A DNA stretch of 48,024 nucleotides from an uncultured Bacteroidaceae bacterium (GCA_964513825.1 CAZEOJ010000002.1:1-48024), one strand, 5' to 3'. Positions 2,760 to 19,746 are shown, counted from the stretch's first letter. The notes: generated by a model not told the origin, from the letters alone. Numbers and translations are program-made.

Positions 2760-3026
2760 TTAATCGTAATGTCCGTAGGAAGAAAACACCAACACTTTAA
2801 TCTGGTCTTCGTGAATTTCGTAGACAAGCCGATGTTTCTGACTTATTCTTCGCGACCATGTGGGGATTTCAAAACCTTTCAGCTGTTCCGGATGACCGGT
2901 GCCGGTTGTCGGATGCAAGGAAAGTTCCTCCAAGAGTCTCAGGGCTTTTTTATAATAGGCCGGTTCGGATCTTTCAAGCTTGTCGATGTCGGACAAGGCT
3001 TCTGTAGTATAATCAACCTTGTACAT
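2760..3026 (-). CDS. yoeB: Txe/YoeB-family type II toxin (RelE/ParE superfamily mRNA interferase)
   Basis: 88 aa. GTGHPEQLKG...WSRRISQKHRLVYEI...YGHYD matches the YoeB signature G-x-G-K/H-P-E-x-L-K ... WSRRI ... HRLVY ... Y-x-HY. It overlaps the upstream antitoxin gene by 14 nt. Confidence 0.9.
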   Translation of the reverse strand: MYKVDYTTEALSDIDKLERSEPAYYKKALRLLEELSLHPTTGTGHPEQLKGFEIPTWSRRISQKHRLVYEIHEDQIKVLVFSSYGHYD

Positions 3027-3291
3027 GGCCTTCTACTCTCATACGATCTAAAAATTCATCGAAAGACTCTCCTGGATTGGGAGAATACACCAACCCTTGT
3101 CTTGCCTGCTCCTTGGCGCGATCTATCTTGGCATAAAATTCCTCCTTGGTCATCAGGGTGTCGTCTTTCTTCACCCTCGACAACTTAAAGGCATCTTTCT
3201 TGCGCGTGATGAGCAACTCCAAGCCTTTCGTCACCTGGTCAAGATAATGGCGTTGGTTGGTTCTAAACTCGCGAGCACTGACGGTAAGCAT
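3013..3291 (-). CDS. yefM: Phd/YefM-family type II antitoxin
   Basis: Start set at internal ATG 3291 (MLTVSAREFRTNQRHYLDQVTKGLELLITRKKD...). This N-terminus fits the Phd/YefM pattern. The 22 upstream codons of the listed ORF are hydrophobic junk that run over the promoter and operator. It is translationally coupled to yoeB. Confidence 0.8.
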   Translation of the reverse strand: MLTVSAREFRTNQRHYLDQVTKGLELLITRKKDAFKLSRVKKDDTLMTKEEFYAKIDRAKEQARQGLVYSPNPGESFDEFLDRMRVEGHVQG

Positions 3292-3314
3292 AACTTTATG
3301 TGTTTTTTCAACTA

Positions 3315-3322
3315 CAAAGATA
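3315..3322 (-). promoter_or_regulatory. Putative Bacteroidota -7 promoter box (TATCTTTG) for yefM-yoeB
   Basis: The minus-strand sequence TATCTTTG matches the TAnnTTTG consensus and lies 24 nt upstream of ATG 3291. Confidence 0.4.
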
Positions 3323-3336
3323 CAAAAAAAACAAAG

Positions 3337-3355
3337 GTGTACCAAAATGGTACAC
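3337..3355. promoter_or_regulatory. Perfect 8-bp inverted repeat GTGTACCA-AAA-TGGTACAC; candidate YefM-YoeB operator
   Basis: Read directly from the sequence. It lies about 46 nt upstream of the yefM start, just upstream of the -7 box. The half-sites contain GTAC cores that resemble the TGTACA operator core described for E. coli yefM-yoeB. Confidence 0.45.
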
Positions 3356-3388
3356 AATAATTCTCTTTAAAAATGTAAACTTTTTAGT

Positions 3389-3396
3389 TAACTTTG
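3389..3396 (+). promoter_or_regulatory. Putative -7 promoter box (TAACTTTG) for the HigB-remnant/XRE antitoxin pair
   Basis: Matches TAnnTTTG and lies 66 nt upstream of ATG 3462. Confidence 0.35.
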
Positions 3397-3461
3397 CGGA
3401 CGGAAAAACGTTTTGCAAACAGGAAGACGCATTGCAAACGGAAAGCCACACGATAAAGGGA

Positions 3462-3662
3462 ATGACACACCGTACCATATACCTATACAAGAATTACTTT
3501 AAGCAGTTTTATCTAAGTCAGACAGAAAGTGTTAGACGAAAGATAAACTACTGCCTCGATGTTGTCAGGACAATGGAGAGAATACCCGTGTCCATACTGA
3601 AAAGTATAGAAGGAACGAAAGGACTCTACGAAATACGTGTGGAATTCGGGGGTGATATATGA
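3462..3662 (+). pseudogene. Truncated RelE/HigB-like (phage Gp49-like) toxin remnant
   Basis: MTHRTIYLYKNYFKQFYLSQTESVRRKINYCLDVVRTMERIPVSILKSIEGTKGLYEIRVEFGGDI* is the typical N-terminal two thirds of Gp49/HigB-like toxins (..F.K.L.G...L.EIRV.....). It stops before the catalytic C-terminal strands. A short out-of-frame piece (MTEYFNEKRNG, about 3660..3695) resembles the usual extreme C-terminus, which suggests an internal deletion. Confidence 0.6.
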
Positions 3663-3686
3663 CAGAATACTTTAACGAAAAACGCA

Positions 3687-3998
3687 ATGGATAAAGATAA
3701 AAAAGCGACTGTGATGAAAGCCCGCACATTCGATGAACTTCTTGACGCGGAGTATGGCGTGGCCGGTACGCCCGAAAGAGAACGGTTTGATGCCGATTCG
3801 GCCGCGTTCAGCCTTGCCGTGACGCTTAAGGAAGAACGCCTGAGGGCCGGCCTCACGCAAGAGCAGCTTGCGGTGAGAATCGGCACCAAGAAAACCTATA
3901 TATCGCGCTTGGAGAACGGCAAATCCGACGTTCAACTCCATACGCTTTTCCGCATTTTCGAAGGCTTGGGGAGGCGGGTGGCGTTGACTATTTTTTAG
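3687..3998 (+). CDS. XRE-family helix-turn-helix antitoxin (HigA-like)
   Basis: 103 aa. LTQEQLAVRIGTKKTYISRLENGKSDVQLHTLFRIFEGLG is a classic HTH_3/XRE motif. It lies directly downstream of the toxin remnant, in the toxin-first HigBA order. Confidence 0.8.
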   Translation: MDKDKKATVMKARTFDELLDAEYGVAGTPERERFDADSAAFSLAVTLKEERLRAGLTQEQLAVRIGTKKTYISRLENGKSDVQLHTLFRIFEGLGRRVALTIF

Positions 3999-4014: not shown

Positions 4015-5124
4015 CTAAAAAAACATGTAGTAGCGGTAGGTGTAGGTGTGGCCGAATTCGGCGGTGAGATCTTCGGCGGTTTTGGCGCCGCGTTGCCATT
4101 GAACGCGGGCCTGCAGAAAGTTGCGGAGACCCCGTTCGATACCCTCATCAAAATGAAAATCATTAAAATATAACTGAACCGAATCGGCAATCGGAAACAT
4201 CTCCTGCCGCATGATGCAGACCATTTCCTGCAGGGGGCGGGGCATCTGCCCGTAGGCGGGCAACAAAGACGCCGCATGTTCCAGATTCTTCCTGAGTAAA
4301 TCAAAGAGCAGGACATATTCCAAAACACCCCGCGAACCGGGATTTTGTTCCCATCTTGCCCGACAATCCCCCTCCAGACTTCCCATATCGTTCAGATAGT
4401 CAGTAAGACCCAATTTTCCGTAGGCGGTGATTTTTTCGGCCAAGGCCACCACCTCGTCCGAAGCCGCGATAGCCGGGCCCGAAGCCGACGAAGCCCGCAG
4501 AAACGCCAACACCTCGCGATACTTCAAAGCCTCTTTCTTCCAACCCTTCAACCCCGCCCACACATGTATGTACCGTTCTGCCAGATTATATTGCTCACAG
4601 GCCATCATGGCCGGCACCATCAACGCCAACGCTTCGCCCGACACCCCGTTTCTCTCTATCAAGTTGATACCCATGCAATATACGGCGGTCGGATTATCTA
4701 ACGCCCGCTGACGGAGCATCCCTGCCAACGAATATTCTCCCTGCAGGCCGTCTTCTACCATGTTGTAGATTTCGGGCGTGCGGTAGTAGGAGAAGAAGCG
4801 AGAAACAAGGTTTCCCGAACCCACGAGCGCCGTTTTGGTATAGGAGGCAAGACGCAGACGAAAAATGATTTCTTCCTGCGAAAGATTTGCATAAAGCGTG
4901 TTCTGCCCGTTCACCACGTCGCTGACGGGGCAGGGATGAGAGAACCAATAGGTATCGGCAAACTCCACGGCTTCCGCATAGCGCTCCTCCATGCACAGCT
5001 GCTCCATTTTCTGCAACTTCTTCTCAAAGCTGCTGGTTTTCCCGCAGCCCGTAAGCAAACCCGTCAAAAGTCCAGCCACCAATCCCACGGCCAACATTTC
5101 GCTAATTTTCGCTATTATTTTCAT
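4015..5124 (-). CDS. Family M paralog M2': lipoprotein carrying only the C-terminal soluble domain of family M
   Basis: MKIIAKISEMLAVGLVAGLLTGLLTGCGK has the lipobox LTGC. The rest aligns with the C-terminal halves of 7515..9053, 10766..12640 and 16053..17507. Shared motifs are MPRPLQEMVCIM vs LPVYMQEAICFI, MPRHVQEALLAI and LPIYLQEGLFLA, plus the aromatic tail GHTYTYRYYMFF*. Confidence 0.75.
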   Translation of the reverse strand: MKIIAKISEMLAVGLVAGLLTGLLTGCGKTSSFEKKLQKMEQLCMEERYAEAVEFADTYWFSHPCPVSDVVNGQNTLYANLSQEEIIFRLRLASYTKTALVGSGNLVSRFFSYYRTPEIYNMVEDGLQGEYSLAGMLRQRALDNPTAVYCMGINLIERNGVSGEALALMVPAMMACEQYNLAERYIHVWAGLKGWKKEALKYREVLAFLRASSASGPAIAASDEVVALAEKITAYGKLGLTDYLNDMGSLEGDCRARWEQNPGSRGVLEYVLLFDLLRKNLEHAASLLPAYGQMPRPLQEMVCIMRQEMFPIADSVQLYFNDFHFDEGIERGLRNFLQARVQWQRGAKTAEDLTAEFGHTYTYRYYMFF

Positions 5125-5544
5125 TTAGGCAACAAAATTTACACCAGAAAATTCCTGCAACGTCATAATTCCAACCTTTGGAAATTTGATGGCTTTAAGG
5201 ATATTAAAGTGGGTGTCGTTGGTAACGATTAACTCTGCATTGGCACAAATGGCGCAATCCACAAATTTGTTGTCGTCGGGGTCGGCCTTGATAAGATGGT
5301 AGAAGAACGTAGGGGAGACCCTTTTCAATAAAGGGGTCTCGAGAATGGCGGCTACAACCAGGCGCGCAACCTGCGGATTGATTTTGCGACTGATGATTTC
5401 TTCATATTCCATCACAATATCCGTAGATACACAGAGACTTATACGTCCCTCTAAAATATCCGTCCAAACCTTGTGATAAGGACTTGATGAAGGAAGTATC
5501 ATCAAAAGGCAATTCGTGTCCAGAACGATAGTCCGCATAAACAA
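5125..5544 (-). CDS. PIN-domain toxin (VapC-like, PIN_3-type)
   Basis: 139 aa. It shows the acidic PIN pattern: IVLDTNCLL at the N-terminus, MEYEEI, ADPDDNKFVDCAI and LIVTNDTHF. The start abuts the antitoxin stop (5545), and the stop abuts the start of 4015..5124. Confidence 0.8.
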   Translation of the reverse strand: MFMRTIVLDTNCLLMILPSSSPYHKVWTDILEGRISLCVSTDIVMEYEEIISRKINPQVARLVVAAILETPLLKRVSPTFFYHLIKADPDDNKFVDCAICANAELIVTNDTHFNILKAIKFPKVGIMTLQEFSGVNFVA

Positions 5545-5829
5545 CTATTTGTGGATGTATGGCGTGCGCAGATGCTCCTTTCCCCAAGCCTCTATATCGG
5601 CCACCTCCATATTGTGCGCGGAAAAATACTCATCGATAGCGTTTTGCGCCTGTTGCGCGGCGGCAATTTCGTCCGAAATAATTTCAAAGGGGATTTTCCG
5701 TCGTTGTACCACGGTGCGGGCAAACACGTTAAAGGCCGCATTCGAACTCAAGCCGAACTGCGAGCAGAGGCTGTCGAACTCTTTCTTAAGGTTGGAATCC
5801 AACCGAACTGTCATAGCTACTTGAGGCAT
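5545..5829 (-). CDS. RelB/DinJ-family antitoxin
   Basis: 94 aa. MTVRLDSNLKKEFDSLCSQFGLSSNAAFNVFARTVVQRRKIPFEI fits the ribbon-helix-helix DinJ pattern (R.D..LK......L...GL........F...V......PF). It sits directly upstream of the PIN gene. Confidence 0.8.
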   Translation of the reverse strand: MPQVAMTVRLDSNLKKEFDSLCSQFGLSSNAAFNVFARTVVQRRKIPFEIISDEIAAAQQAQNAIDEYFSAHNMEVADIEAWGKEHLRTPYIHK

Positions 5830-5849
5830 AATCGTGATTCTTTACAGCA

Positions 5850-5857
5850 CAAAGATA
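5850..5857 (-). promoter_or_regulatory. Putative -7 promoter box (TATCTTTG) for the relB/dinJ-PIN operon, with an adjacent TTGCAA-A-TTGCAA repeat (5866..5878)
   Basis: TAnnTTTG match 21 nt upstream of ATG 5829. The tandem copies of the palindromic hexamer TTGCAA immediately upstream are a candidate antitoxin operator. Confidence 0.35.
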
Positions 5858-5889
5858 GCAAATAATTGCAAATTGCAACCATTTTGTCG

Positions 5890-7518
5890 TCAGTGGCCGC
5901 CGAAGTCGTTGGGGAGGGAGGGGCCGGAGGTGGCGTCCACCCTCCCGGCGGCTATTCCGACTGTGTCGAAAAACGACATATCGGGATAGGAAAGCGGCTG
6001 TTCCACCATGGTTTTATACGCCTTCCTGTCGAACGGAAGCGGCTTTCTGTCAAATACGGGGAACGTGAACGAGCGCGTGTTCCACAGGTAGTGGTCGGGA
6101 TGCTTCTGCGGCAATACAAACGGCTTGGAAATAATCTGTCCGTCGGGCGCGGAACCATCAAAATGCGCCAGATATAGAAGCGATTGCGCCCCCGATTCCC
6201 GCTTGGACGTAAACACAAACCATTTGCCGTCAGAAGTCCACACCCCGCGGCGGTCCGCATCGGGCGAATTGAAGCCCGGCGTATGCACGGGACGCAGGCC
6301 CGCGCTATCCCACTTCAGCAAAATCAAATCACCTTGATTCTGAGACGGAAAAGACCCCATCATCACCGTCGATACAAACAAGAAACGCCCGTCGGGGCTT
6401 ACACTCGGAATGGACGCGGAACGGTTTACGCTGTCCCCCCACGCAAGCGGCGAATACACAAATTCGGGCTCTCCAAAGGATTCTCTATCTTCATCAAAAT
6501 CAATGCGGAACAAATCGTAGCGAAACTCGGCCAAACACTCTTTCTCCCGCTCCTGCGGCAGATTCCACACCTCCATATAAGGCGTGCGGCAAAAGTAGAG
6601 GCTCTTGCCGTCGGGCGCCCAGGTAGGGAAAGAATAACAGAAAGCCGTGTCGGTGAGGGCGGGGCAAGAAAACAGACGGTTCCGCCGTGTGTCGTAGAGC
6701 ACAATCCAGGCCGCCACATCGGGCATGAGGTCTTGGGTGCGGTGCGGATTGACAAACTGCACGGGCGAGATGCGCGTGGTGGCAAAGGCGATATAACGCC
6801 CGTCGGGGCTCCAGGCGGGGTAGGAAAGACGGAATCCGTAGCGGGCGGGCACCGAAATCTTGCACGACGAACCCTGGCCGTCGGTCACCACCGTGCCCGC
6901 AAAAGCCTGACGCACATGAAACACCATCCTGGAATCCACACCCAGACTATGGCAATTCATGCAGTTGTTTTCGGTCTGAAGGTTGTCCATCAGACAACGC
7001 TGCGAAAAATCGGTAAGGTTGCGCTCGTATACCTGCAAGCGTCCCCCCGTGTTCTGGTCGTGGGGGCCCAGACGATACACCAGATACGGATCTATGCTGT
7101 CGGGAGATACCCGCCACACCCGCAAGGCCGTATCGTCCACCACAAGACGCAGAAAACCGCCGCTCACGCAAGCCAGCGTTTCCCGCCAAGTTTTTTCATT
7201 GAAAATCCGCGTGCGACAACGGTTTTTTGTCCACGAAACCAACATGTTGCCCGTGCTGTCGCAGGCTTCCACCCGCACGCGGTGCGCCCGCCCGTCGGCC
7301 ATGCGGAAGTTGAGAGGTGCGATATTGCAGGGCAGCACGATTCCGTCGGCATAGTTCGGGTAGATGTCGGCGCAAGGCCCATATGCAGCGGCGCAAGGCC
7401 CATAGCAAGGCTCACAGCGAGGCCCGCAGGCGCAGAACAGACAGGCTCCCACCGCAAGGCCAAGGGCGGACAAGAGAGTTCTTAAACGGAATGACAAGCG
7501 CAAATCCATCATAATCAT
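5890..7518 (-). CDS. Family P paralog P2: lipoprotein with CxxCH motif and PD40-like beta-propeller
   Basis: 542 aa with a signal peptide and Cys-rich lipobox region (LAVGACLFCACG). Motifs: LPCNIAPLNF, DSIDPYLVYRL, NNCMNCH (6949..6963), YPAWSPDGRYIAF, FPTWAPDGKSLYFCR, VSPDGRFLFVS, WTSDGKWFVFTSKR. Its start overlaps the stop of the upstream M3 gene by 4 nt (ATGA at 7515..7518). Confidence 0.9.
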   Translation of the reverse strand: MIMMDLRLSFRLRTLLSALGLAVGACLFCACGPRCEPCYGPCAAAYGPCADIYPNYADGIVLPCNIAPLNFRMADGRAHRVRVEACDSTGNMLVSWTKNRCRTRIFNEKTWRETLACVSGGFLRLVVDDTALRVWRVSPDSIDPYLVYRLGPHDQNTGGRLQVYERNLTDFSQRCLMDNLQTENNCMNCHSLGVDSRMVFHVRQAFAGTVVTDGQGSSCKISVPARYGFRLSYPAWSPDGRYIAFATTRISPVQFVNPHRTQDLMPDVAAWIVLYDTRRNRLFSCPALTDTAFCYSFPTWAPDGKSLYFCRTPYMEVWNLPQEREKECLAEFRYDLFRIDFDEDRESFGEPEFVYSPLAWGDSVNRSASIPSVSPDGRFLFVSTVMMGSFPSQNQGDLILLKWDSAGLRPVHTPGFNSPDADRRGVWTSDGKWFVFTSKRESGAQSLLYLAHFDGSAPDGQIISKPFVLPQKHPDHYLWNTRSFTFPVFDRKPLPFDRKAYKTMVEQPLSYPDMSFFDTVGIAAGRVDATSGPSLPNDFGGH

Positions 7519-9053
7519 AGAAAATAAAACCGGAAAGTAAAAGTATTGCGGAAGGAACGCGAAGCCTCCATAAAATCCATTTTACCAACATGATAGAGCG
7601 TCCACGCCCGATACACCTCCTCCACCTCCTCCAACACATGCAGGCTGAGGTGATAGCCCATGTATGGCGTTTCGAGCATCTGCTTACGGTCCCACGAAGA
7701 AGGATAGTTGCGTATAAAGCAAATAGCCTCCTGCATATACACAGGCAAGGTCTTGCACCCGAGGCGGGCTCCCCATCCGGCCAGATACTCCAGACGGTCG
7801 AGCCGCTTTTCCATCAGGCAGAGCAATGTATAATATTCCCAAAGAGGCAAAGACATCTCCGCAGGCTTTCCCGCAAAGCCCTCGGCATAAATCCGCACCC
7901 AACCGTCTAAATGATTGCCGCCCCGCACCAACGAAGCCGACTGCAAAGGCACAGGCCGCGAACCATCCTCTCCCCGACAATCTCCCTCAAACTCCTCTGC
8001 CACATTCCGATACGCCAACGTGCGCGAGGCATAGCGCAGACTTTTTTGCAACAGACGGAACTGCCCCGTATGCAACTCGGCCCGCAAAAGCGGCCCCACA
8101 AAACGGTTCTGCCACCCCTTTTTCTCCAAATAAGAAAGGATAAAAGGCACCTGCGGCGCATATACCCCCAGACAATCCTGCAACAACACATAAGGATAGG
8201 CGCATTCTTCCGTGTAAGGAAAACCCGAGGCAAACATCCCGTCCATCCAAGGCATATCGTTGTAGTCCAAAAACATATTGTTGAGCCGCCCCGTCTGCAA
8301 AAGCGACAGTTTGAGCCAGGCCGTCATCTCCGCCCGTTGCACCTTTACCGCCTCCTTTTCATCCTCCAAAGGCACCGAAGCCCGCTCCCGACACACCCTA
8401 TCGCTGATTTGGAAACACCGCTCGTAGTTGCCCGCAGAGGCCGCCTGCCGCACCTGCAAGATATTTCTTTCCAAAGCGTTGTGATGATAGCCCAACACAA
8501 AACCCGGCACGCAGGCAAACGCCACACACGCCACCGCAAACCTGCCCCAACCCCAACCCCGCCGCTCAAAACGCCTCCAAAACCCAAAGGCCCGCACGCA
8601 AAGCGCCAATACTCCCATTCCTAAAAGCAGATCCATCGACCAACCCGCCACCGCAGGTTCGGAACTCGTGAAAAAATAGAAAAACACAGGCAGCACAAAC
8701 AGCGAATACTGCCGCAACACCGCCCATGCAAGCCTGCAGAAAGCCGCCGTTACCAAACCCGCCGCCAAAAGGATGCAAGGCGTGTTGATATAGAATTGAC
8801 TCACAAACCGCCACAAAAACTCGCCGAGGCGTGGATGCAGCCCCACCGCCTCCACCAAACCCTGCCCCTCGGGCCGCCCCAACCAAGCCCCCTCAAAAAA
8901 AGCCCTTACAAACGTGCGCGTATAGGCAAAGAAACCCACCTGAAACTGATTGTGGAAATAGGGCAGATACCACAGCAGGCAGAAACCCGCCGCCACAACC
9001 ACCAAAGCCGCGCCCCCCTGCCGCCCGCAAAACGAAAAAACACGCTTTTTCAT
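7515..9053 (-). CDS. Family M paralog M3: polytopic membrane protein with a large C-terminal soluble domain
   Basis: Start moved to ATG 9053 (MKKRVFSFCGRQGGAALVVVAAGFCLLWYL), 1 nt after the stop of P3. The listed start at 9131 would overlap P3 by 77 nt. There are about 7-8 hydrophobic segments in the first roughly 230 aa, then a soluble helical domain ending in FRNTFTFRFYFL*. Confidence 0.8.
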   Translation of the reverse strand: MKKRVFSFCGRQGGAALVVVAAGFCLLWYLPYFHNQFQVGFFAYTRTFVRAFFEGAWLGRPEGQGLVEAVGLHPRLGEFLWRFVSQFYINTPCILLAAGLVTAAFCRLAWAVLRQYSLFVLPVFFYFFTSSEPAVAGWSMDLLLGMGVLALCVRAFGFWRRFERRGWGWGRFAVACVAFACVPGFVLGYHHNALERNILQVRQAASAGNYERCFQISDRVCRERASVPLEDEKEAVKVQRAEMTAWLKLSLLQTGRLNNMFLDYNDMPWMDGMFASGFPYTEECAYPYVLLQDCLGVYAPQVPFILSYLEKKGWQNRFVGPLLRAELHTGQFRLLQKSLRYASRTLAYRNVAEEFEGDCRGEDGSRPVPLQSASLVRGGNHLDGWVRIYAEGFAGKPAEMSLPLWEYYTLLCLMEKRLDRLEYLAGWGARLGCKTLPVYMQEAICFIRNYPSSWDRKQMLETPYMGYHLSLHVLEEVEEVYRAWTLYHVGKMDFMEASRSFRNTFTFRFYFL

Positions 9054-9054
9054 C

Positions 9055-10710
9055 CTAATGCCCTCCCACAAATTGCACGGCCCCCGCCTCCAACTCCTCG
9101 TCCGAAATGCGGAAACCCTCCAACGAAACATCTATCTGCAAGTCCACGGCCTCCTCCCTGGCCACCCCCGCCAAAGCCCGCGCCTGCAAAGCCGCAGGTT
9201 CGGTAGCCAAAACAGGAAAGACAAACCCCCTCAGATTGGTCAGATAGAAATCGCCCCACTTCTGAGGAACCAAGAAAGGCCTCGAAAAATGCCCTGTAAC
9301 AGAATCGTAATGCGTAATATAGGTTTCGGGAATGGCCAGCGTGCGCCGGCTGCTCGAAAACACCATCCAACGCCCCGACGAAGAAAACGAATGCCCCTTT
9401 TCCGAGCCCGCCGTATTGAGCTCGCGCAGCTCCTCCACGGTGGAATCCTGTAGATTGAGCCGATAGAAATCGCCCAGGTTCTGTAACGGAAACGTGCTTG
9501 CCTTGAGCAAGGACACCACCATATACTTGCCGTCGGGCGACACTTTGGGCATACACGCGCTCTTCTGTATCTGCGAGAAAGGAAACGCGCACGCAAAGTT
9601 GGAGAAACGCTCCGTCTCGGGGTCAAAATCCATCTGCATCAAATCGGCCCACACCTGTTCCACACGGTTCTGGCGGAAACCCAAGGCCGTATCGGCATAT
9701 TGCGGATAGGGAAGACTGTCGTAGCGTTTGCGCGGCGACACACAGAAATACAACCGCTTTCCATCGCGGCTCCAGGTGGGGAAAACCGCCTCGTCCTCCT
9801 CGCGCGTAAGCTCGGGGCAAGAAAACAGACGCATCTTCTCCACATCCAAAATCACGATATGGCTCATTGTATCGAGCGTATAGATGATTTTGTGCGTGGC
9901 GTTGGCGTAGTGCACCGAGTGGGGCAGGTTGGTGGAGAAAGCCACATAGCGGCCCGAAGGATGCCAGGCAGGGTAGGTGAGGCGTATCTGATAGTTGGAC
10001 GGCACCTGTATCTTGCGCGCCTGTTTGCCGTCTATCAGCAAAGTGCCCTTATGCGCCTCGCGCAGATGCACCACCATGCGCGAAGCCCGGTGATCGTAAC
10101 AATCGTGGCAGTTCATGCAGTTGTTGTCCATATAACGGTTGTCGAGCACCTGGCGGGTTTCGAAATCGGTGAGCCTGCGTTGGCGCAGGAACAGCCAACC
10201 GTGTTCGCCCTCCTCGTATTGGCTGGCGCGGAAAAGCAGGTAGGGGTCTATAGCATCTTGGCTAACAAACCAATGCAAAGGCGAAAAACCATAACGGACG
10301 CCCTCTTGGCAGGCCGAAACCTCCACCCGAACCTCTCCCCCCGAGGCCCCCGACAACGCCTTGCGCCATTTCTTGAGCGGAATGCGGCTCCCGTTCTTGC
10401 CCATAGGCACGCGGAACGAAGCCACCAACGCCCCCTCGCGGTCAAAGAAACACATGCGCACCCGAGGCCGGGACCAACCCGAAGCGGGGCGCAGACAAAA
10501 GTTGAGGGGCGCTATGTTGGAGGGAATGCAGATGCTGTCGGTATCGTAGGGAAACACCACCTCGGTGGCGGAAATCTCCGGAACGCCGGCGGCCGAAACG
10601 CTTTCGCAGGCCCTCCGGCAGCCCGTGGCGGCCCAAAGGCCCAAGGTCAAAACACACCACATCCCCAGGGCGGACACGGCAGAACGGAAGCAAGAAATAA
10701 AGCCTTTCAT
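9055..10710 (-). CDS. Family P paralog P3: lipoprotein with CxxCH motif and PD40-like beta-propeller
   Basis: 551 aa with lipobox WAATGC. Motifs: IPSNIAPLNF, DAIDPYLLFR, NNCMNCH (10105..10119), YPAWHPSGRYVAF, FPTWSRDGKRLYFC, VSPDGKYMVVS, FSSSGRWMVFSSSR. The start is uncertain: a TATCTTTG box lies only 5 nt upstream, and an alternative Met is at codon 17. Confidence 0.85.
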   Translation of the reverse strand: MKGFISCFRSAVSALGMWCVLTLGLWAATGCRRACESVSAAGVPEISATEVVFPYDTDSICIPSNIAPLNFCLRPASGWSRPRVRMCFFDREGALVASFRVPMGKNGSRIPLKKWRKALSGASGGEVRVEVSACQEGVRYGFSPLHWFVSQDAIDPYLLFRASQYEEGEHGWLFLRQRRLTDFETRQVLDNRYMDNNCMNCHDCYDHRASRMVVHLREAHKGTLLIDGKQARKIQVPSNYQIRLTYPAWHPSGRYVAFSTNLPHSVHYANATHKIIYTLDTMSHIVILDVEKMRLFSCPELTREEDEAVFPTWSRDGKRLYFCVSPRKRYDSLPYPQYADTALGFRQNRVEQVWADLMQMDFDPETERFSNFACAFPFSQIQKSACMPKVSPDGKYMVVSLLKASTFPLQNLGDFYRLNLQDSTVEELRELNTAGSEKGHSFSSSGRWMVFSSSRRTLAIPETYITHYDSVTGHFSRPFLVPQKWGDFYLTNLRGFVFPVLATEPAALQARALAGVAREEAVDLQIDVSLEGFRISDEELEAGAVQFVGGH

Positions 10711-10765
10711 GCTACAAAGATAGTTTTTTTGTATTTTCGCGCTTGATTCTTGTATAATAGGTGAT

Positions 10766-12640
10766 ATGAACCGAAAGAATACCCTGCGGAAACTCCTTGC
10801 CTACCTGCTTGCAGGCGGGGTGTTCTTTTGCGTGCTCTATTTCGGCCTCAAAGAAGTTTTGGCGGGTTGGGAGGCGCACAGCTCGCTGTTCCGCTATTCG
10901 GCCTCGTATATAGACGAATTCCGCGGCGAGATATGGGGGCCGCTGCTTTATACCAACAGTTTCTTGGTGCAGTTTGCCTACTATCCCGCCTTGGGCGCCC
11001 TTATCTGCGCGCTCTTGCTTACGCTTACGGCCTGGAGCCTCAATACGGCGGCGGGTATGGAGCGCTTGGGGCAAATTCCCATAGGTGTTGGTCTCACGGC
11101 CTGCCTTCTGCCCGTGTTTCCGCATACGTTTATGGTGTGGCCGCTTATTTTCCTTGCCATAGGTCTGGGTGGCGTGCTTTGGCGCAAGACCCGCCATGTA
11201 GCGCTGCGCATCGTCTACTTGGCCTTTTTGGTGTTCTATATCCGCGAATATATTTTGGTGGCCTGGGTGTTCTATGGCATGATAGACTTGGTGGATTGCC
11301 TTTTCGAAGTCCGCACGGGCGGGGCCGCGTTTTTAAAACGCTTTGCCATCCACACCCTTGCACTTGTGGTGCTCTGTTGCGTGGGTGTATGGATATGGCA
11401 GCCCTATGCTTTCTTTTCGACGGGTTTCGAGAGGCTTGATTTCGGAAACGCCATAAGCACCGAATATATCCGCGTGCCTTTCGCCTATTTTTATGTAAAA
11501 TCTCTTGCCACATTTTGCGTATTGGTGGGTTGTGTGGCATGGATGTTCACGCCTTTGTTGGCGCAGGTAAAGGGTAAGATTTTTCGTGGCATCGTGCCGG
11601 GACTTTGCCTGACAGCGGGTCTTTTCTCGCTCGGCATCACGCCCGTGCAGGCCAGGCCTATGGCCCGCTTCTTTGCCGTAGACCGGCTTTGCCGCCAATA
11701 CCGCTGGCAAGAGGCCTTGCAGCAACTTAACCGCGACTATATCTACCATACCGCCGCCACGGGTCATCTGGCCGAGGATATGCTTTACGAGGCCCAGCTT
11801 AAGACCTGCCTTTTGGCCACGGGCAGGGCCAGTGGCCAAATATTCACTTATCGGCTTTCCACCTTCCCATTTATTTTTCCCACAAAGTTTATCAACCGCC
11901 CCGAATCCTATGTAACTCCCGTTTACTATGCCTATGCGGGCAATTTCAGCGAAAGCCTGCATCAGAACTACGACTGGATAACCAGCCATAACTATTCGCC
12001 TGTGGTGATGCGCGAGATTATCAAGGTGAGCCTGATGCTCAACGACACCTTGCCCGCCTCCAAATTCGTGCATATTATGCAGCAAAGCCTGTTCCGAGCT
12101 AAGGAAGCACAACGCCTTTTTGCGGGCGAGGATTCCGAGGCGCAGGCACAGATAGAAAGGGGAAAGGCTATGCTTCCCTTGGTCAATTATGCAGTGGATG
12201 CCTATAAACCCGATAAGAATGCCCGTCGCAATTTTCTCTATAGGGGCTATAACCCCTTGTTTTTCGAATACTACCTTGCGCTTTGTCTCTTGGATAAGAA
12301 TCCTGGCGACATTGCCCTTCATCTTGACCAGATAGAGGAATGCTATCCGCAGGGCATGCCCCGCCATGTGCAGGAAGCCCTGTTGGCCATAGCGGGCTAT
12401 TCGCCTTCCACAGCCATTACTTCTGATGGCATAGATGGTATAGAGGCCGATACGCGCAGCGATTTCGCGCTCTTTGTGCTCGACAACCTCAAGTTCCAGC
12501 GCGAGGAGATTTCGTTTGCCGATTTAGCCCATAAGTGGAGTCATACCTATTGGTTCTACGATCTCTATATGCACGAAATCCCCGAAACCCTACAACCCCA
12601 ACAACCTCCTTATGGAAATCAATTGGATAAAACCATTTAG
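10766..12640 (+). CDS. Family M paralog M4: polytopic membrane protein with a large C-terminal soluble domain
   Basis: 624 aa. About 8 hydrophobic segments lie in residues 1-290, followed by a soluble domain. Family motifs are MPRHVQEALLAI and an aromatic near-terminal WSHTYWFYDLYM. It is divergent from P3, and its 3' end overlaps the P4 start by 29 nt. Confidence 0.85.
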   Translation: MNRKNTLRKLLAYLLAGGVFFCVLYFGLKEVLAGWEAHSSLFRYSASYIDEFRGEIWGPLLYTNSFLVQFAYYPALGALICALLLTLTAWSLNTAAGMERLGQIPIGVGLTACLLPVFPHTFMVWPLIFLAIGLGGVLWRKTRHVALRIVYLAFLVFYIREYILVAWVFYGMIDLVDCLFEVRTGGAAFLKRFAIHTLALVVLCCVGVWIWQPYAFFSTGFERLDFGNAISTEYIRVPFAYFYVKSLATFCVLVGCVAWMFTPLLAQVKGKIFRGIVPGLCLTAGLFSLGITPVQARPMARFFAVDRLCRQYRWQEALQQLNRDYIYHTAATGHLAEDMLYEAQLKTCLLATGRASGQIFTYRLSTFPFIFPTKFINRPESYVTPVYYAYAGNFSESLHQNYDWITSHNYSPVVMREIIKVSLMLNDTLPASKFVHIMQQSLFRAKEAQRLFAGEDSEAQAQIERGKAMLPLVNYAVDAYKPDKNARRNFLYRGYNPLFFEYYLALCLLDKNPGDIALHLDQIEECYPQGMPRHVQEALLAIAGYSPSTAITSDGIDGIEADTRSDFALFVLDNLKFQREEISFADLAHKWSHTYWFYDLYMHEIPETLQPQQPPYGNQLDKTI

Positions 12641-14189
12641 AAAGGCCTGGGGGCTTGTGGCCGTGTTGGCTATAGTTTTTTTTGCGGCCTGCACGCCACG
12701 CGTGCGCGAGAGCGAGCTTGCGCAAATGCGCTATCTTTCGGCGCCCGAGGCCTATCTCTATCCCGATTATGCCGATTGCACGATACCCGTCAATATCGCG
12801 CCTCTCAATTTCTATATTCTGCCGCCCCATAGCCGCTACGAACTCAAGGTCTATGGCATAGGCCCCGATACCCTGCGCCTCAAAGGCCGTTATAGGGTGC
12901 AGTTTTCTCCCAAGGCCTGGCATAGGTTGTTGGCCCAGAACCTGCACGATACGCTGCGGGTGCAGATAAGTCTCCATAGCAGCGAGGGCATAAAAAGCTA
13001 CGCGTTCACGTGGACGGTGCAAGACAGCATAGACCCCTATTTCAGCTGCCGCCTCATAGAACCCAGCTACCAGACCTCCTCGGTGCTGCAGACGATAGAA
13101 TATAACCTGCAAGACGCCACAAGCCGCGTTCTGTTCGACAACCGCCTGCAAGGCATAGGCTGCGTGAACTGCCACACCTATGCCCAAAATAACGGCGACT
13201 ATATCGTCTATCACGTGCGCTTTGACCATACCGGCACCTTTATCGTGACGCCCGAACGCACCTTGCGGGTAGATCTTAAATCCGAGCGTTTTCCGCAGGG
13301 GGGTGTCTATCTCGCCTGGCATCCCAATAAGGAGCTTATCGCCTTCGGCACGGCCTCGGCCTATCCTTTTGTGCACGCTCAGGATATTGTGCGCCGCACC
13401 GAGGTCTACGACTCTTTCGGCGACCTGATTCTCTACGACGCGGTGCGCAACTATATTTTCTCCGACGAGCGCCTGTGCGACAGCCTCAGCGAGGAGACCT
13501 TTCCCTATTGGAGCCCCGACGGCAAATGGCTCTATATATGCCAGTCGCCCAATCCGCTCCGCGATGAAACTGAAGACGATGTGGATTTTTCCAAAAAAAT
13601 CCGCTATAACCTTATCCGCGTGGCCTTTGATGATTCCTCGCGCACTTTCGGCCGCATCGATACCGTCATCAACGCGGCCATGGCGGGCCATACCGTTTCC
13701 TTTCCGAGGCTTTCGCCCGACGGGCGTTTTTTGGCCGTCTGCCTCAGCGATCATGGCACCTTTCCTATCCGCCATCCCGAGAGCGACCTCTATCTGCTCA
13801 ATCTCGGCCCGCAGGAGGGCGAGGGCTTTGCACATAGGCCGGGCTTTCTCTATCCCGTCAAGAAAATGGAGCATGTAAACAGCCCCTACACCGAAAGCTA
13901 CCATACCTTCAGCAGCAAGGGCTCCTGGCTGATGTACAGCACCAAGCGCGAGGACAACCTCTATTCGCGGCCCTATTTCACCTATATAGATGCAGCGGGT
14001 GTTTCGCACAAACCCTTTCTGCTGCCGCAGAAAGACCCCGCTTTCTATCTATCTTTCTTCCGCTCGTTCAACGTGCCCGAGTTTGCCAACCGCCCCGTGC
14101 GTATCAACGCCGCCGCATCCAAAAGAAATGCGTATATGCCGAGGATACGCCCCGACAGCATAGTTATTCTAAAATATATACCCCGATAA
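12612..14189 (+). CDS. Family P paralog P4: lipoprotein with CxxCH motif and PD40-like beta-propeller
   Basis: 525 aa with lipobox FFAAC. Motifs: IPVNIAPLNF, DSIDPYFSCRL, IGCVNCH (13161..13175), LAWHPNKELIAF, FPYWSPDGKWLYIC, LSPDGRFLAVC, FSSKGSWLMYSTKR. Confidence 0.9.
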   Translation: MEINWIKPFRKAWGLVAVLAIVFFAACTPRVRESELAQMRYLSAPEAYLYPDYADCTIPVNIAPLNFYILPPHSRYELKVYGIGPDTLRLKGRYRVQFSPKAWHRLLAQNLHDTLRVQISLHSSEGIKSYAFTWTVQDSIDPYFSCRLIEPSYQTSSVLQTIEYNLQDATSRVLFDNRLQGIGCVNCHTYAQNNGDYIVYHVRFDHTGTFIVTPERTLRVDLKSERFPQGGVYLAWHPNKELIAFGTASAYPFVHAQDIVRRTEVYDSFGDLILYDAVRNYIFSDERLCDSLSEETFPYWSPDGKWLYICQSPNPLRDETEDDVDFSKKIRYNLIRVAFDDSSRTFGRIDTVINAAMAGHTVSFPRLSPDGRFLAVCLSDHGTFPIRHPESDLYLLNLGPQEGEGFAHRPGFLYPVKKMEHVNSPYTESYHTFSSKGSWLMYSTKREDNLYSRPYFTYIDAAGVSHKPFLLPQKDPAFYLSFFRSFNVPEFANRPVRINAAASKRNAYMPRIRPDSIVILKYIPR

Positions 14190-14191
14190 CC

Positions 14192-14656
14192 ATGAAAAAA
14201 CACCTCCTTTTGTTCGTTCTCCCCCTGTGCCTGTGCGCGTGCAGCGGCAAGCACGGGGCCGAAAAAACGGGCCACACCTTTCTCAAGGCCTACTACACCG
14301 ATCTCGACTTTGCCAAGGCCAAGCAATACGCCACACCGGTATCGCATGCGCTTATAGATGAAAGGGCCGAGAACCTTTCGTATAATCCCTATGCCAAGCA
14401 GGAAGTGCCGGAGCTTACCATCAAGGAGTTGCGAATGGACAAGGAAGATAAAAACAAGGCCACACTTAGCTATACGCTCAACCGCGCCCAAAAGACGCTG
14501 GATCTTAAAAAAGCAGAGGGCAAATGGTTAGCCGACCTCGAACGCGAGGCCAAAATGAGGGAGGAGGGTATGCAGAGCCTGGAGGACGAAACGCATGGGG
14601 GCTTTGCTGCTGCTGCCAGCGGGCCGATTAAATACCATAAACGCCGCGTGCGTTGA
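14192..14656 (+). CDS. Small lipoprotein of unknown function
   Basis: 154 aa. MKKHLLLFVLPLCLCACSGK has the lipobox LCAC. The gene starts 2 nt after the P4 stop. A charged C-terminal tail is present. No family assignment was possible by eye. Confidence 0.7.
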   Translation: MKKHLLLFVLPLCLCACSGKHGAEKTGHTFLKAYYTDLDFAKAKQYATPVSHALIDERAENLSYNPYAKQEVPELTIKELRMDKEDKNKATLSYTLNRAQKTLDLKKAEGKWLADLEREAKMREEGMQSLEDETHGGFAAAASGPIKYHKRRVR

Positions 14657-14671
14657 TTATAAAGAAATCCT

Positions 14672-14679
14672 TATTTTTG
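14672..14679 (+). promoter_or_regulatory. Putative internal -7 promoter box (TATTTTTG)
   Basis: TAnnTTTG match 30 nt upstream of ATG 14709. Confidence 0.3.
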
Positions 14680-14708
14680 CAAAATCTTAATTAAATAAAC
14701 AAGACAGT

Positions 14709-15359
14709 ATGAAAAAGTTGATGCTTATAAGCCTTTTGGCGATGGCGGGAGTTTGGACTTTGCAGGCGCAGACCACCGATAGCACGGCGGTGGCGCAGGC
14801 CGATACGGCGGTTGTTTTAGGGGATGGTGGGATGCGCAGAGGCGTTGAGCTTCCTGAAAAATTAAGGGAGTTTTTAGGGGCGGATAAATATAAGGAAGCG
14901 CTTGCCGAATATCTCAAGTTCAGGCCTACCATAGCGGGCGATGATTTTTTGGCGACATATGCCGATATGAATATTTATAGAACGCTGGCGGAAAATATGC
15001 CAGAGAAAACCGAATATAGGGAACTTTATGAGGTTGCTAAAAAGAAATTGCAAACCACCTATGGCAAGAGGGTGGATGTGATTCTGATGGAGTTGGACGA
15101 ATTGCAGGCCCCTACCGACCAAGACAGAATCCGTGTCTACACTAAGGTGATTGAGGCGGACTCCACCTATACGCATGCTTATCTCGAAAGAGGCTATGCT
15201 TGGATGAACGAAGGCCGTATGTTGGATGCTTGTCACGATTTTAGCAAGCATCCCGACTATGATAAAATGCCGTGGAAACAAGAATGCGAGAGCCTGTTGG
15301 AACAGGAGGCTATAGAAAAGGCAACAGCAGAAGAGGCGGCGAAAGCAGCAAAAAAATAA
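14709..15359 (+). CDS. Secreted TPR-like protein, paralog 1
   Basis: 216 aa with signal peptide MKKLMLISLLAMAGVWTLQAQ. It has a TPR-like segment (KVIEADSTYTHAYLERGYAWMNEGRMLDACHDFSK) and is collinear with 15366..16049. Confidence 0.7.
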   Translation: MKKLMLISLLAMAGVWTLQAQTTDSTAVAQADTAVVLGDGGMRRGVELPEKLREFLGADKYKEALAEYLKFRPTIAGDDFLATYADMNIYRTLAENMPEKTEYRELYEVAKKKLQTTYGKRVDVILMELDELQAPTDQDRIRVYTKVIEADSTYTHAYLERGYAWMNEGRMLDACHDFSKHPDYDKMPWKQECESLLEQEAIEKATAEEAAKAAKK

Positions 15360-15365
15360 TTCGCG

Positions 15366-16049
15366 ATGCGGCGCTTTGCAGTAGCTTTCCTTTTGCTATT
15401 TACGTTGAGCAGCATGGGCTTTGCCCAGTCGGCTTCTGTGGCCTCGCGCAGGGTAAACGAGAATCCCCAGGCGGATTCCTTGGCCCTGCGCGCGGCCTTT
15501 GTGGCTGATTCTTTGGCGGCAGAGCAGGCCCGGATTTCCGATAGTCTCTATCAAGTCACTTCGGGGCTTATTTCCTTGCCCGACAGTATCAATCATCTGC
15601 TCGACGAGCATAAGACCGAAGAGGCCTGGACGGCTTACCGTGCCTATAGGGAAAGCCTTGTCAACCCCACGCCTTTCGGTTTGGATTTTCTTCATAAGGA
15701 ATTTATTGGCAAACTGTCTACCTTTGGCGACACCACGGCGATGCGCGATGTCTATCATAAGCAGAACGTGCGGCTGAAAAAGGCCTTGATAAAGAAATAT
15801 CCCAATAAGGCTGAAGTCATTTGGTATGAGAGCGATAAGATAAAGGATGAGGATTCCCGCGAACCTATGGTGAAGTTGCTTACCAAAATGATCAAGCACG
15901 ACCCCGCCAACCTTTGGCCCTATAAGACGCGGGGCCTGTATCTCTATATGTTGGGGCGCTATGAAGAAGCGCTTGCCGATTTCGAACGCCTTCCTGATAA
16001 GCAAACGATTTTGGAATATCACAATTGCCGTATGTTTCTCGGCAAATAG
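15366..16049 (+). CDS. Secreted TPR-like protein, paralog 2
   Basis: 227 aa with signal peptide MRRFAVAFLLLFTLSSMGFAQ. It has a TPR-like segment (KMIKHDPANLWPYKTRGLYLYMLGRYEEALADFERL) and starts 6 nt after the preceding gene. Confidence 0.7.
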   Translation: MRRFAVAFLLLFTLSSMGFAQSASVASRRVNENPQADSLALRAAFVADSLAAEQARISDSLYQVTSGLISLPDSINHLLDEHKTEEAWTAYRAYRESLVNPTPFGLDFLHKEFIGKLSTFGDTTAMRDVYHKQNVRLKKALIKKYPNKAEVIWYESDKIKDEDSREPMVKLLTKMIKHDPANLWPYKTRGLYLYMLGRYEEALADFERLPDKQTILEYHNCRMFLGK

Positions 16050-16052
16050 GCT

Positions 16053-17507
16053 ATGAGGTGCCTCCAAACTCGTATTCTTTTTGCAGGAGCGTTAGTCGCC
16101 CTTGTGGTTCTTTGGTGGGTGCTCTGCTTTCCCTGTTTTTGGGCGGCCGAGCAAGCGAGTTTCTTTTGTTTTTTGCGCGAATTTCATATTGAGATTCTTA
16201 TCACCGAAGGCCCGGCCCGTTGGGTGGCGCGTTTCTTGATTCAATTTTGGCACTGGGGAGTAGGGGCCGTGGTTGTGCATCTACTTTTGATGGGCCTTTG
16301 GTTTTCTGAACTTTATTTTCTTTTTCTGCGCAGGGGTTTGCGGATAGGTGGGTTTGTAGCCGCGGCGCTTTTGGCGCCTCTCTATTTTATTTTGGCCTAT
16401 AGAGGCGTGGAGGGCTTGGCCTGGGTGTTACGCCTGATGGCGTTGCTCGCTGTATCCATAGGTATCAAGGCCTTGTTTCACAGGCCTATCGCGCCGAGAA
16501 AAACATGGCCTTCTTGGGTGCTTTTTCTGTTGTTGCCGACTTTGGGGGTAGGGGCCATCTCACTCACTTTCAACCAGGCTTTTAGGGTGCAGCGGACTTT
16601 CTATAAAAGCGAAAAGGCGGCCGAGGCGCAGAATTGGGAAAAGGTCTATCGCATAGCCGCGCGCTATTTCGATGCGCATCCGCAGGAAAACAAGCTTTCG
16701 CAACAAAAGGCCGAATGCCGTGATTTGCTCTCCGTTAACCTCAAACTTGCCCTGCTTAAGACCCGCCGGCTTAACCGCGAATTTTTCTCTTTTGGCCGCG
16801 TGCCGGAAATGCAGGCTATGTTTCCGCACGAGGGTTCGGCGGCGGGCCGCTATAATATCCCTAACATCCGCTTGGCCTGGCAGGCTGGGCTTATGGTGCC
16901 CATGCGCATCTATGCCAACAACCACCTCAATACCCATGGGCTCAGCAATGCCACGGTGAAGTGGATTATTCCCAACAGCATCTATTTAGGGCGCTACGAT
17001 TTGGCCCAACGCTATCTCTACTATCAGGCGCATACAGTAGCCTATCGCAAAGAAGCCCGCTATTGGCAGGCCTATAACAGCCCCGAAGCGGCTACTACCC
17101 ATCCTTATATCAAGCACCATCGTGAGAGCGGCAATGCCCGCACGATAGAAGAAGATATCTTTCTCGACTTTTGGGCGCAGCAAGTCTATAGCCCCCTTTC
17201 CGACACCCTGCTGTTGGACTACAAAACTTTCACCGACCTCTATTATCTGCATTGGGAGAATTTGCCCGCCGATGCCGCCCACTACAGCCGCTTAGGTCTA
17301 CCCTTGCCTATCTATTTGCAAGAGGGCTTGTTTTTGGCACGTACTGATAGGCCTGGAGAGGTTTCCGAGGAGGTAGTGCGCGAATGCCGGCGCGTGGAGG
17401 CGGCTTGCCGGCGTTGGAAAAGCGGAGAACTTAGTTATAGCGAGTTGTGGGCGGCTTGCGGGTCTACCTATATTTTTTATTATTATCTTTCTATAGGGAT
17501 TCTGTAG
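16053..17507 (+). CDS. Family M paralog M5: polytopic membrane protein with a C-terminal soluble domain
   Basis: 484 aa. About 6 hydrophobic segments lie in residues 1-175, followed by a soluble domain. Family motifs are LPIYLQEGLFLA and the aromatic tail CGSTYIFYYYLSIGIL*. It starts 3 nt after the preceding gene. Confidence 0.8.
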   Translation: MRCLQTRILFAGALVALVVLWWVLCFPCFWAAEQASFFCFLREFHIEILITEGPARWVARFLIQFWHWGVGAVVVHLLLMGLWFSELYFLFLRRGLRIGGFVAAALLAPLYFILAYRGVEGLAWVLRLMALLAVSIGIKALFHRPIAPRKTWPSWVLFLLLPTLGVGAISLTFNQAFRVQRTFYKSEKAAEAQNWEKVYRIAARYFDAHPQENKLSQQKAECRDLLSVNLKLALLKTRRLNREFFSFGRVPEMQAMFPHEGSAAGRYNIPNIRLAWQAGLMVPMRIYANNHLNTHGLSNATVKWIIPNSIYLGRYDLAQRYLYYQAHTVAYRKEARYWQAYNSPEAATTHPYIKHHRESGNARTIEEDIFLDFWAQQVYSPLSDTLLLDYKTFTDLYYLHWENLPADAAHYSRLGLPLPIYLQEGLFLARTDRPGEVSEEVVRECRRVEAACRRWKSGELSYSELWAACGSTYIFYYYLSIGIL

Positions 17508-17611: not shown

Positions 17612-17619
17612 TAAATTTG
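17612..17619 (+). promoter_or_regulatory. Putative -7 promoter box (TAAATTTG) for the FGE-domain/giant-protein operon
   Basis: TAnnTTTG match inside the only sizeable AT-rich intergenic gap (17508..17681), 63 nt upstream of ATG 17682. Confidence 0.4.
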
Positions 17620-17681
17620 TGGCTTGTATGAGCTTGTGCTCAAATTATATTAAAAAGAAAAACAATAAAATAAGTGAGATT

Positions 17682-19721: not shown

Positions 19722-19746
19722 ATAGTTTCATTTATTTCTGCATACG

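Follow-up and report, generated by a model that had tools for sequence, protein, structure and literature searches.

A conserved pair of cell-envelope genes, encoding a DUF6057 protein and a CxNCH propeller lipoprotein, in a divergent array from an uncultured Bacteroidaceae bacterium

Introduction

The DNA considered here, hereafter the window, is the entire contig C2 (48,024 nucleotides) of genome G000, an uncultured Bacteroidaceae bacterium assembled to 1.68 Mb in 219 contigs and 93.7% complete (GCA_964513825.1 CAZEOJ010000002.1:1-48024). An earlier note on this DNA singled out a family of polytopic membrane proteins, here called M, whose genes are coupled to those of a second family, here called P, and proposed that the two form a co-amplified, stoichiometric two-component module. 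What are these proteins, do they belong together beyond this one contig, and what might such a pair do in the cell envelope? We use M for genes of the DUF6057 type, and P for genes encoding a lipoprotein with a PD40 propeller and a CxNCH motif. M and P occupy the same genomes and lie side by side on the same strand almost wherever they are found, and the conserved part of M is an exported, all-helical C-terminal domain that is carried in this one array on three kinds of anchor. The pair is a widespread one of the cell envelope, in which neither partner has a described function and M has no structural relative in the PDB, and a literature search for DUF6057, PF19529 or PD40-CXXCH proteins of Bacteroidota found no paper. 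As DUF6057 is already catalogued in Pfam as a domain of unknown function (DUF), the pair is newly described in the sense that it is uncharacterized and unlike any studied system.

Gene array and protein families

The genes of the array, in order along the window, are as follows.

P0, 1..1173, plus strand: 3' portion of a P gene truncated at the contig start; CxNCH propeller lipoprotein family, with CMNCH at fragment residue 46 and 52% identity to P2
P1, 1211..2827, minus strand: P-family lipoprotein (ATG at 2746 is the likelier start) with PD40 repeats and CFNCH
M2', 4015..5124, minus strand: DUF6057 C-terminal domain only, after a lipoprotein-type signal (LLTGC); PF19529 1e-16, profile positions 307-568
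P2, 5890..7518, minus strand: P-family lipoprotein; PD40 4.7e-17; CMNCH at 186; ATGA overlap with the M3 stop
M3, 7515..9053, minus strand: short, divergent DUF6057 member with 5 helices and the C-domain; motif LPVYMQEA; tail TFTFRFYFL
P3, 9055..10710, minus strand: P-family lipoprotein; PD40 4.8e-14; CMNCH at 198
M4, 10766..12640, plus strand: full-length DUF6057 with about 9 helices and a helical C-domain at 314-601; PF19529 1.5e-39, profile positions 7-568
P4, 12612..14189, plus strand: P-family lipoprotein, partner of M4; CVNCH at 184
Three small exported proteins (one lipoprotein and two paralogous helical proteins, T1 and T2), 14192..16049, plus strand: local neighbours outside the family-wide module
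M5, 16053..17507, plus strand: short DUF6057 member with 5 helices and the C-domain; PF19529 4.1e-15; no adjoining P

All four M reading frames called in the earlier note are present at the positions listed, as are the junctions on which its argument for translational coupling was built, namely the ATGA overlap of M3 and P2 at 7515-7518, the 1-nt gap between the P3 stop (9055) and the M3 start (9053), and the 29-nt overlap of M4 with P4. A same-strand, adjoining gene for a CxNCH PD40 lipoprotein accompanies M4 (P4) and M3 (P2 and P3, one on either side). M2' falls between P2 and P1, from which it is separated in the window by inserted toxin-antitoxin genes.

The tentative guess that M might belong to DUF6057 proved correct, as M4, M2' and M5 score 136.8, 61.4 and 56.1 bits, respectively, against the curated cut-off of 29.8, and no M protein matches any other Pfam family. 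M3 has no Pfam match even at E<=1, and is linked to the family through M5 (BLASTP 7e-17, 24% identity) and through a local profile (1.6e-9) built from M proteins of other genomes only. The family is small, a set of 1.8 billion proteins yielding 187 representatives at E<=0.001; a separate profile search for M homologues gave 13 proteins. The motif [LM]Pxx[LMV]QE[AGM], reported for these proteins in the earlier note, does occur once per M open reading frame (MPRPLQEM, LPVYMQEA, MPRHVQEA and LPIYLQEG). Because it is the local version of a family-wide conserved block, IPRHxEEA, in which P532 and A538 are at least 90% conserved, its recurrence is evidently not due to chance. E537 and Y502 are invariant in both M alignments (73 and 81 sequences). 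The threonine- and aromatic-rich C-terminal tails are likewise as quoted previously, and T594 and W596 (at least 90%) and Y598 (about 85%) are conserved across the family.

Conservation of the gene pair

Among 150 genomes of the same order, roughly one for each genus, 17 have strong DUF6057 matches, and exactly these 17 have P-family matches. They contain 40 near-full-length M genes, of which 36 are accompanied on the same strand by a P gene no more than 250 bp from the matched stretch, and for a 37th a fragment of P is seen where the contig stops; several of the genomes carry tandem M-P-M-P arrays. A further 89 loci, nine from genome records and 80 from environmental metagenomes, contributed 92 M genes, of which 85 have a same-strand P within 600 bp and the other seven are in loci cut short by a contig end, such that no M gene with room on both sides was found to lack P. 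P precedes M in the environmental clade, whereas M mostly comes first in gut Bacteroidales, and the adjacency recurs on one Verrucomicrobiia contig. Similarity scores of the partners are correlated (Spearman rho 0.92), and in 58 of 92 pairs the best match of M elsewhere is the neighbour of the best match of P, although shared species history contributes to both measures. Together, these patterns indicate that M and P are inherited together. The neighbourhood census, with its shared genomes and near-universal same-strand adjacency, thereby bears out the proposal of a conserved two-gene module. Copy numbers of M and P are near 1:1 across genomes, at up to five each; the term stoichiometric nevertheless goes beyond these data, as gene copies are near 1:1 in most genomes and 6:5 in the lineage of the window.

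Of 401 genomes sampled from the order, G000 included, 48 have P matches (about one in eight, or ~12%), and DUF6057 is rare elsewhere in the phylum, in four of about 290 sampled genomes. One 476-kb scaffold titled Ruminococcus flavefaciens (locus L027, JAMPAI010000001.1) has M4-like and P4-like genes that cluster with those of Bacteroidales, and here the label or the binning looks wrong.

The array itself is old. A close relative, G401 (a 1.7-Mb metagenome-assembled genome, MAG), has the entire array on one contig in the same order, at 71-88% protein identity. M paralogs within the window are only ~18-24% identical in BLASTP local alignments, with some pairs aligning weakly or partly. In a maximum-likelihood tree, the five P proteins of the window do not form a single clade. 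P4 falls among P proteins encoded after M4-like genes in six other MAGs, and P0-P3 make up a second clade, which also takes in orthologs of P1 and P3 from other MAGs. The low identity of the M paralogs and the presence of P orthologs in other genomes argue against recent amplification, and co-amplification in the sense of a recent event is therefore not upheld. The order M4-like then P4-like is kept in loci L021-L027. Other neighbour relations shift, with P1 orthologs adjoining M2'-like genes in L022 and L023, and an M5-like gene preceding the ortholog of P3 (55% identity) in L025. Beyond the left end of the window, G401 has a full-length M gene upstream of its P0 ortholog, plus one more M gene. 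Contig C30 of G000 matches that region, which brings the lineage to six M and five P genes. A helix-turn-helix (HTH) gene at 3687-3998, small open reading frames nearby (2769-3998) and a PIN-domain gene at 5125-5544 split the array in the window. As they have no counterpart in the syntenic relative G401, these toxin-antitoxin genes are recent insertions between P2, M2' and P1.

Architecture of M

The earlier note gave M six to eight N-terminal transmembrane segments followed by a soluble domain. The succession of membrane part and soluble domain is correct for M3, M4 and M5; the counts are not, with about nine helices in M4, five in M3 and M5, and a lipoprotein-type signal alone in M2'. Relative to the full-length DUF6057 profile (positions 1-569), M4 aligns over 7-568, M5 over 8-167 and 278-568 only (about four helices being absent), and M2' over 307-568; M3 is not aligned by Pfam and, like M5, lacks profile positions 168-277. 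One array thus presents the same C-domain on about nine helices, on five, or behind a lipoprotein signal only, and single-anchor forms of M are found elsewhere in the DUF6057 family.

M2' is particularly informative, in that it (LLTGC) and its ortholog in G401 (LLTAC; the two proteins 71.5% identical) both bear lipoprotein signals, in agreement with the previous placement of the soluble domain outside the cytoplasm. Ratios of non-synonymous to synonymous substitution (dN/dS) against G401 are 0.13 for M5, 0.20 for M3 and 0.26 for M2', and all four M genes are under purifying selection. On the strength of its dN/dS, M2' is not a decaying fragment. As M2' and its ortholog are lipoproteins kept by purifying selection, the DUF6057 C-domain works outside the cytoplasm, and nine helices, five helices or a lipid can each carry it. 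Consistent with this, the conserved residues N496, E501, Y502, K511, P532, E537, A538, T594 and W596 all lie in the C-domain (81-sequence alignment), and the exported helical C-domain is the conserved part of M. The concentration of conserved residues there, together with the variability of the anchors, would place the activity or binding site in the periplasmic domain and leave the membrane part mainly as an anchor, with one caveat that concerns E36. Across the same 81 sequences the membrane part shows no conserved His, Trp or Asp, and M has no conserved His or Cys that could hold a cofactor. Notable membrane-part residues are E36 and Q69 of the first periplasmic loop, at the periplasmic surface of the membrane, of which E36 is at least 90% conserved and is replaced in M3.

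The AlphaFold model of M4 (mean predicted local distance difference test, pLDDT, 87.9; predicted template modelling score, pTM, 0.89) consists of helices throughout, those of the membrane part running to about residue 295 and those of the C-domain spanning 314-601. The N-terminus is predicted inside, and the long first periplasmic loop bears two short helices. Residues 595-601, the aromatic segment, are modelled as a final packed helix (pLDDT ~95) and 602-624 as disordered, so that in the model the aromatic segment is not a free tail. The idea that this segment serves as an outer-membrane beta-signal or sorting tag was rejected on the same ground.

A Foldseek search of M4 against the PDB returned 0 matches at E<=0.001. 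Its weak best matches are helical-repeat proteins (PPR, NprR/Rap and LapB; probability <0.7), and the M sequence profile finds no PDB chain at E<=1. The topology had been likened to GT-C glycosyltransferases, O-antigen ligases and CcsBA-type haem handlers. This likeness fades on inspection, as M has no corresponding Pfam match, no conserved His, Trp or Asp in the membrane, and no such fold among the 50 Foldseek matches listed. The GT-C fold is absent from those 50. E36 sits in the first periplasmic loop, where GT-C enzymes have a conserved catalytic acid, and might be its counterpart, but it is replaced in M3 and no DxD or ExD pair is present. As for the CcsBA proteins of System II, M has no match to PF01578 (the WWD domain) and no invariant His or Trp in its membrane part, and separate CcsA/ResB genes exist in G000. 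Nor does M match Wzy_C in Pfam or any WaaL-type structure among the same 50 matches. A role in anti-phage defence was also considered and rejected, PADLOC matching no M, no P and none of the small neighbours.

Architecture of P and its CxNCH site

The AlphaFold model of P4 (pLDDT 93.2) has TolB as its best Foldseek match (1.4e-11), followed by generic propellers. The best score of any P protein against the TolB equivalog TIGR02800 is 34.6 bits, far below the cut-off of 343, and P is accordingly TolB-like in shape and not TolB. The lipobox Cys is nearly invariant (95 sequences). Lipoproteins exported to the surface carry a K-(D/E)2 or SDDDD-type signal (PMC5080379), and 73 of 75 P proteins lack such a signal, having at most one acidic residue at positions +2 to +6. 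P is therefore predicted to lie on the periplasmic side, where the C-domain of M also resides.

C184, N186, C187, H188, H201 and R203 of P are invariant in the 95 sequences, and the CxNCH motif conforms to the CxxCH pattern. Haem binding at this motif is plausible but unproven, and we consider it somewhat more probable than otherwise that the CxNCH/His/Arg cluster is a covalent haem c site, failing which it may be another metal or a disulfide site. A cytochrome c assembly gene (PF01578) is found in 45 of 47 P-positive genomes of the order, as against 83% of a background sample, and the two P-positive genomes without it are incomplete assemblies (74% and 90% complete). Conversely, P, CcsA (PF01578) and the cytochrome c peroxidase (CCP) are jointly missing from three complete genomes of this family; in an inventory of haem-c genes, these three genomes have none of CcsA/ResB, CCP/MauG, DHOR and NrfA/NrfH.

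The haem-c inventory of G000 itself includes two CcsA-family regions. One, on contig C42 at 4687-6608, is a short pair of ResB-like and CcsA-like genes flanked by those for riboflavin synthase and D-Ala-D-Ala ligase; a second CcsA/ResB gene is present in fragments. The inventory draws on contigs C42, C49, C154 and C190. We rejected the proposition that P proteins are the sole haem-c clients of this genome, since contig C154 encodes a CCP/MauG peroxidase and C190 a DHOR protein with two haems, although neither NrfA nor NrfH was found in G000.

Genomic context

Across 109 loci outside the window, only M and P are conserved. Recurrent neighbours are SusC (26 loci), a secreted 229-aa protein of unknown family (24), SusD (21), an oxidoreductase of the Gfo/Idh/MocA type with a twin-arginine translocation (Tat) signal (15), GH123 (14), a secreted xylose-isomerase-like barrel (9) and DUF4838 (6). 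In metagenome contigs (L030, L033 and L038), a co-oriented operon recurs that encodes the 229-aa secreted protein, P, M, the Tat-signal Gfo/Idh/MocA oxidoreductase, the xylose-isomerase-like barrel and DUF4838, which suggests a periplasmic oxidative sugar pathway. A gene that combines a chorismatase FkbO/Hyg5-like part with an L-PSP domain directly adjoins the pair in three of the 20 genome loci (L003, L015 and L017).

The association with adhesins implied earlier did not extend beyond the window: in the 109 other loci the pair never stands beside such genes, its neighbours being instead SusC/SusD and periplasmic sugar oxidoreductases. In the window, the array is followed by two paralogous FGE-sulfatase-domain proteins (17619-21420) and then by an open frame that exceeds 8,861 codons and matches SprB-, PKD- and Ig-like repeats (21440-48022). 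A functional link of the pair to these FGE-like genes and the giant adhesin was rejected, as it is conserved in none of the 109 loci.

The small exported proteins at 14192-16049 are kept in G401 (dN/dS 0.11-0.19). None has a Pfam family above the cut-off, and the second helical protein (15366-16049) shows weak, sub-threshold TPR matches only. T1 and T2 are 26% identical to each other, and were rejected as M-like proteins, being unrelated to M on comparison. Long open reading frames opposite the true genes, at 6184-7485 (plus), 11333-12367 (minus) and 12489-14009 (minus), look like shadow frames of G+C-rich coding sequence.

Discussion

The explanation that we favour, at about even odds, is that M and P form a periplasmic complex, in which a membrane- or lipid-anchored helical domain is joined to a TolB-like, possibly haem-bearing lipoprotein, the pairs having diversified as old paralogs tied to periplasmic glycan handling. 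M would be an inner-membrane protein whose exported, repeat-like C-domain does the work, the membrane part serving mainly as an anchor, whether of about nine helices, of five, or of lipid alone. P would be a lipoprotein on the periplasmic side, composed of an N-terminal domain and a PD40 beta-propeller. Each M C-domain would bind its own P, and the pairs, diversifying much as SusC/SusD pairs have, would act as accessories to periplasmic glycan handling.

Several observations weigh against parts of this proposal. No fusion of M with P occurs among the retrieved loci. Pairing within the window is loose, with M5 having no adjoining P, the orthologs of P3 and M5 being neighbours elsewhere, and six M genes standing to five P genes in the lineage. 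No glycan-uptake genes lie beside the array in the window, and the near-invariant E36 of the first periplasmic loop hints at a role for the membrane part of M beyond that of an anchor. With respect to haem, the enrichment of assembly genes among P-positive genomes is modest (p ~0.01 by a naive binomial, in which relatedness is not taken into account), the motif region of P has no match to any cytochrome family of Pfam even at E<=10, and the P4 model sets the motif in a beta-hairpin (strands 183-191 and 194-204) instead of the usual helical turn, which would be atypical for haem c. PF01578 was not seen in G401 either, an observation that is uninformative, as the G401 contig ends exactly where one of the two CcsA-family regions of G000 (C42 4687-6608) begins.

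M could instead be a maturation factor for P, that is, a membrane-anchored helical-repeat holdase resembling CcmI/NrfG which presents the CxNCH of unfolded apo-P to the System II haem ligase and is no stable partner of the mature protein. We regard this as unlikely, albeit the least so of the rivals. It draws on the periplasmic helical-repeat domain that M carries on a membrane anchor, on the co-occurrence of P with cytochrome c assembly genes, and on the embedding of CxNCH in a beta-rich fold, which must receive haem before folding. One chaperone should nonetheless suffice for a motif that is the same in all P paralogs, yet there is one M per P, at up to five each; M has no TPR or CcmI/NrfG family match, and its helical-repeat fold matches are weak (probability below 0.7). 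A slightly more doubtful alternative is that P is a membrane-docked c-type cytochrome which takes electrons from Tat-exported periplasmic sugar oxidoreductases, with M docking P at the inner membrane and passing electrons towards menaquinone. In other bacteria, the 3-keto-glycoside dehydrogenases of the periplasm require cytochrome c, and the enzyme used by Bacteroides is Gfo-like and exported by Tat (PMC8121099), a precedent which motivates this redox interpretation. Also in its favour are the recurrence in environmental contigs of the operon joining P and M to the Tat-signal Gfo/Idh/MocA oxidoreductase and the xylose-isomerase-like barrel, with Gfo-type genes in 15 of 109 loci, and the conserved polar residues E36 and Q69 at the periplasmic membrane surface of M. 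But no His or Cys that might hold a cofactor is conserved in M, M2' is devoid of a membrane domain, the gut loci, including the window, have no oxidoreductase neighbours, and haem in P is itself unproven. Were it correct, and we give it the same low probability in this wider form, the pair would constitute an unrecognized redox outlet of Bacteroidota, in which a P protein with covalent haem in a non-cytochrome propeller, docked by M, takes electrons from the Gfo/Idh/MocA glycoside dehydrogenases of glycan-utilization loci, linking oxidative glycan breakdown to anaerobic respiration.

Less probable again is a Tol-Pal-like envelope tether, in which M, in the inner membrane, and P, on the inner face of the outer one, together span the periplasm and sustain envelope integrity, independently of nutrient use. 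P does find its best fold match in TolB, the anchor of M lies in the inner membrane, and a lipoprotein without a surface-export signal is by default placed on the periplasmic face of the outer membrane (PMC5080379). Set against this, P falls an order of magnitude short of the TolB cut-off (34.6 versus 343 bits), neither tolQRA nor pal genes are associated with the pair in the 109 loci, and a multi-copy, divergent pair in ~12% of the genomes of the order is a poor fit to a core envelope function. The lead offered by the earlier note, that M is a GT-C-type glycosyltransferase, a ligase or a CcsBA-like haem handler with P as its substrate, we hold to be the most improbable of all. M is polytopic, with its N-terminus inside, a long first periplasmic loop with two short helices and a near-invariant Glu, and it is strictly coupled to one exported protein, all of which would suit such an enzyme. 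The well-modelled M4 (pTM 0.89) nonetheless retrieves no PDB fold at E<=0.001 and none of these enzymes among the 50 matches listed, no PDB chain is found by sequence at E<=1, and Pfam gives DUF6057 only. Further, M3, M5 and M2' have only part of the membrane core or none of it, despite purifying selection, and the Glu is missing from M3.

The window is in effect a natural experiment, presenting one C-domain on three kinds of anchor, and it shows which part of M to express and test. Solving the pair could reveal a new periplasmic step of nutrient use in gut and sediment Bacteroidota and, if P binds haem, a haem-c protein of a new kind, with a propeller as its scaffold.

Comparison with known systems

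Compared with Pfam DUF6057, the M proteins of the window share scores above the cut-off, the P-x-H-x-E-E-A block and the T-x-W-x-Y end in M4, M5 and M2', and differ in that M3 lies below Pfam detection and that M3, M5 and M2' have shortened architectures. With GT-C enzymes, WaaL and CcsBA, M has in common a polytopic membrane build and a periplasmic portion; it differs in the absence of their family motifs and of their folds among the structural matches listed. CcmI and NrfG, membrane-anchored or periplasmic TPR chaperones of apocytochromes c, similarly place a helical-repeat periplasmic domain at the inner membrane beside a CxxCH protein, but M has no sequence or significant fold match to them, has many more helices, and occurs as one M per P in place of one for all. 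P shares with TolB (TIGR02800; for example PDB 7mx5 and 4r40) an N-terminal domain and a PD40 propeller, and departs from it as a multi-copy lipoprotein with an invariant CxNCH/H/R cluster that is paired with DUF6057 and not with tolQRA or pal. The closest parallel in genetic behaviour, by analogy only, is with SusC/SusD pairs: M-P is likewise a two-gene unit of Bacteroidota that stays adjacent, multiplies and diversifies as pairs, often beside SusC/SusD themselves, but it is built from different folds and set in a different compartment, the inner membrane and periplasm as opposed to the outer membrane and cell surface.

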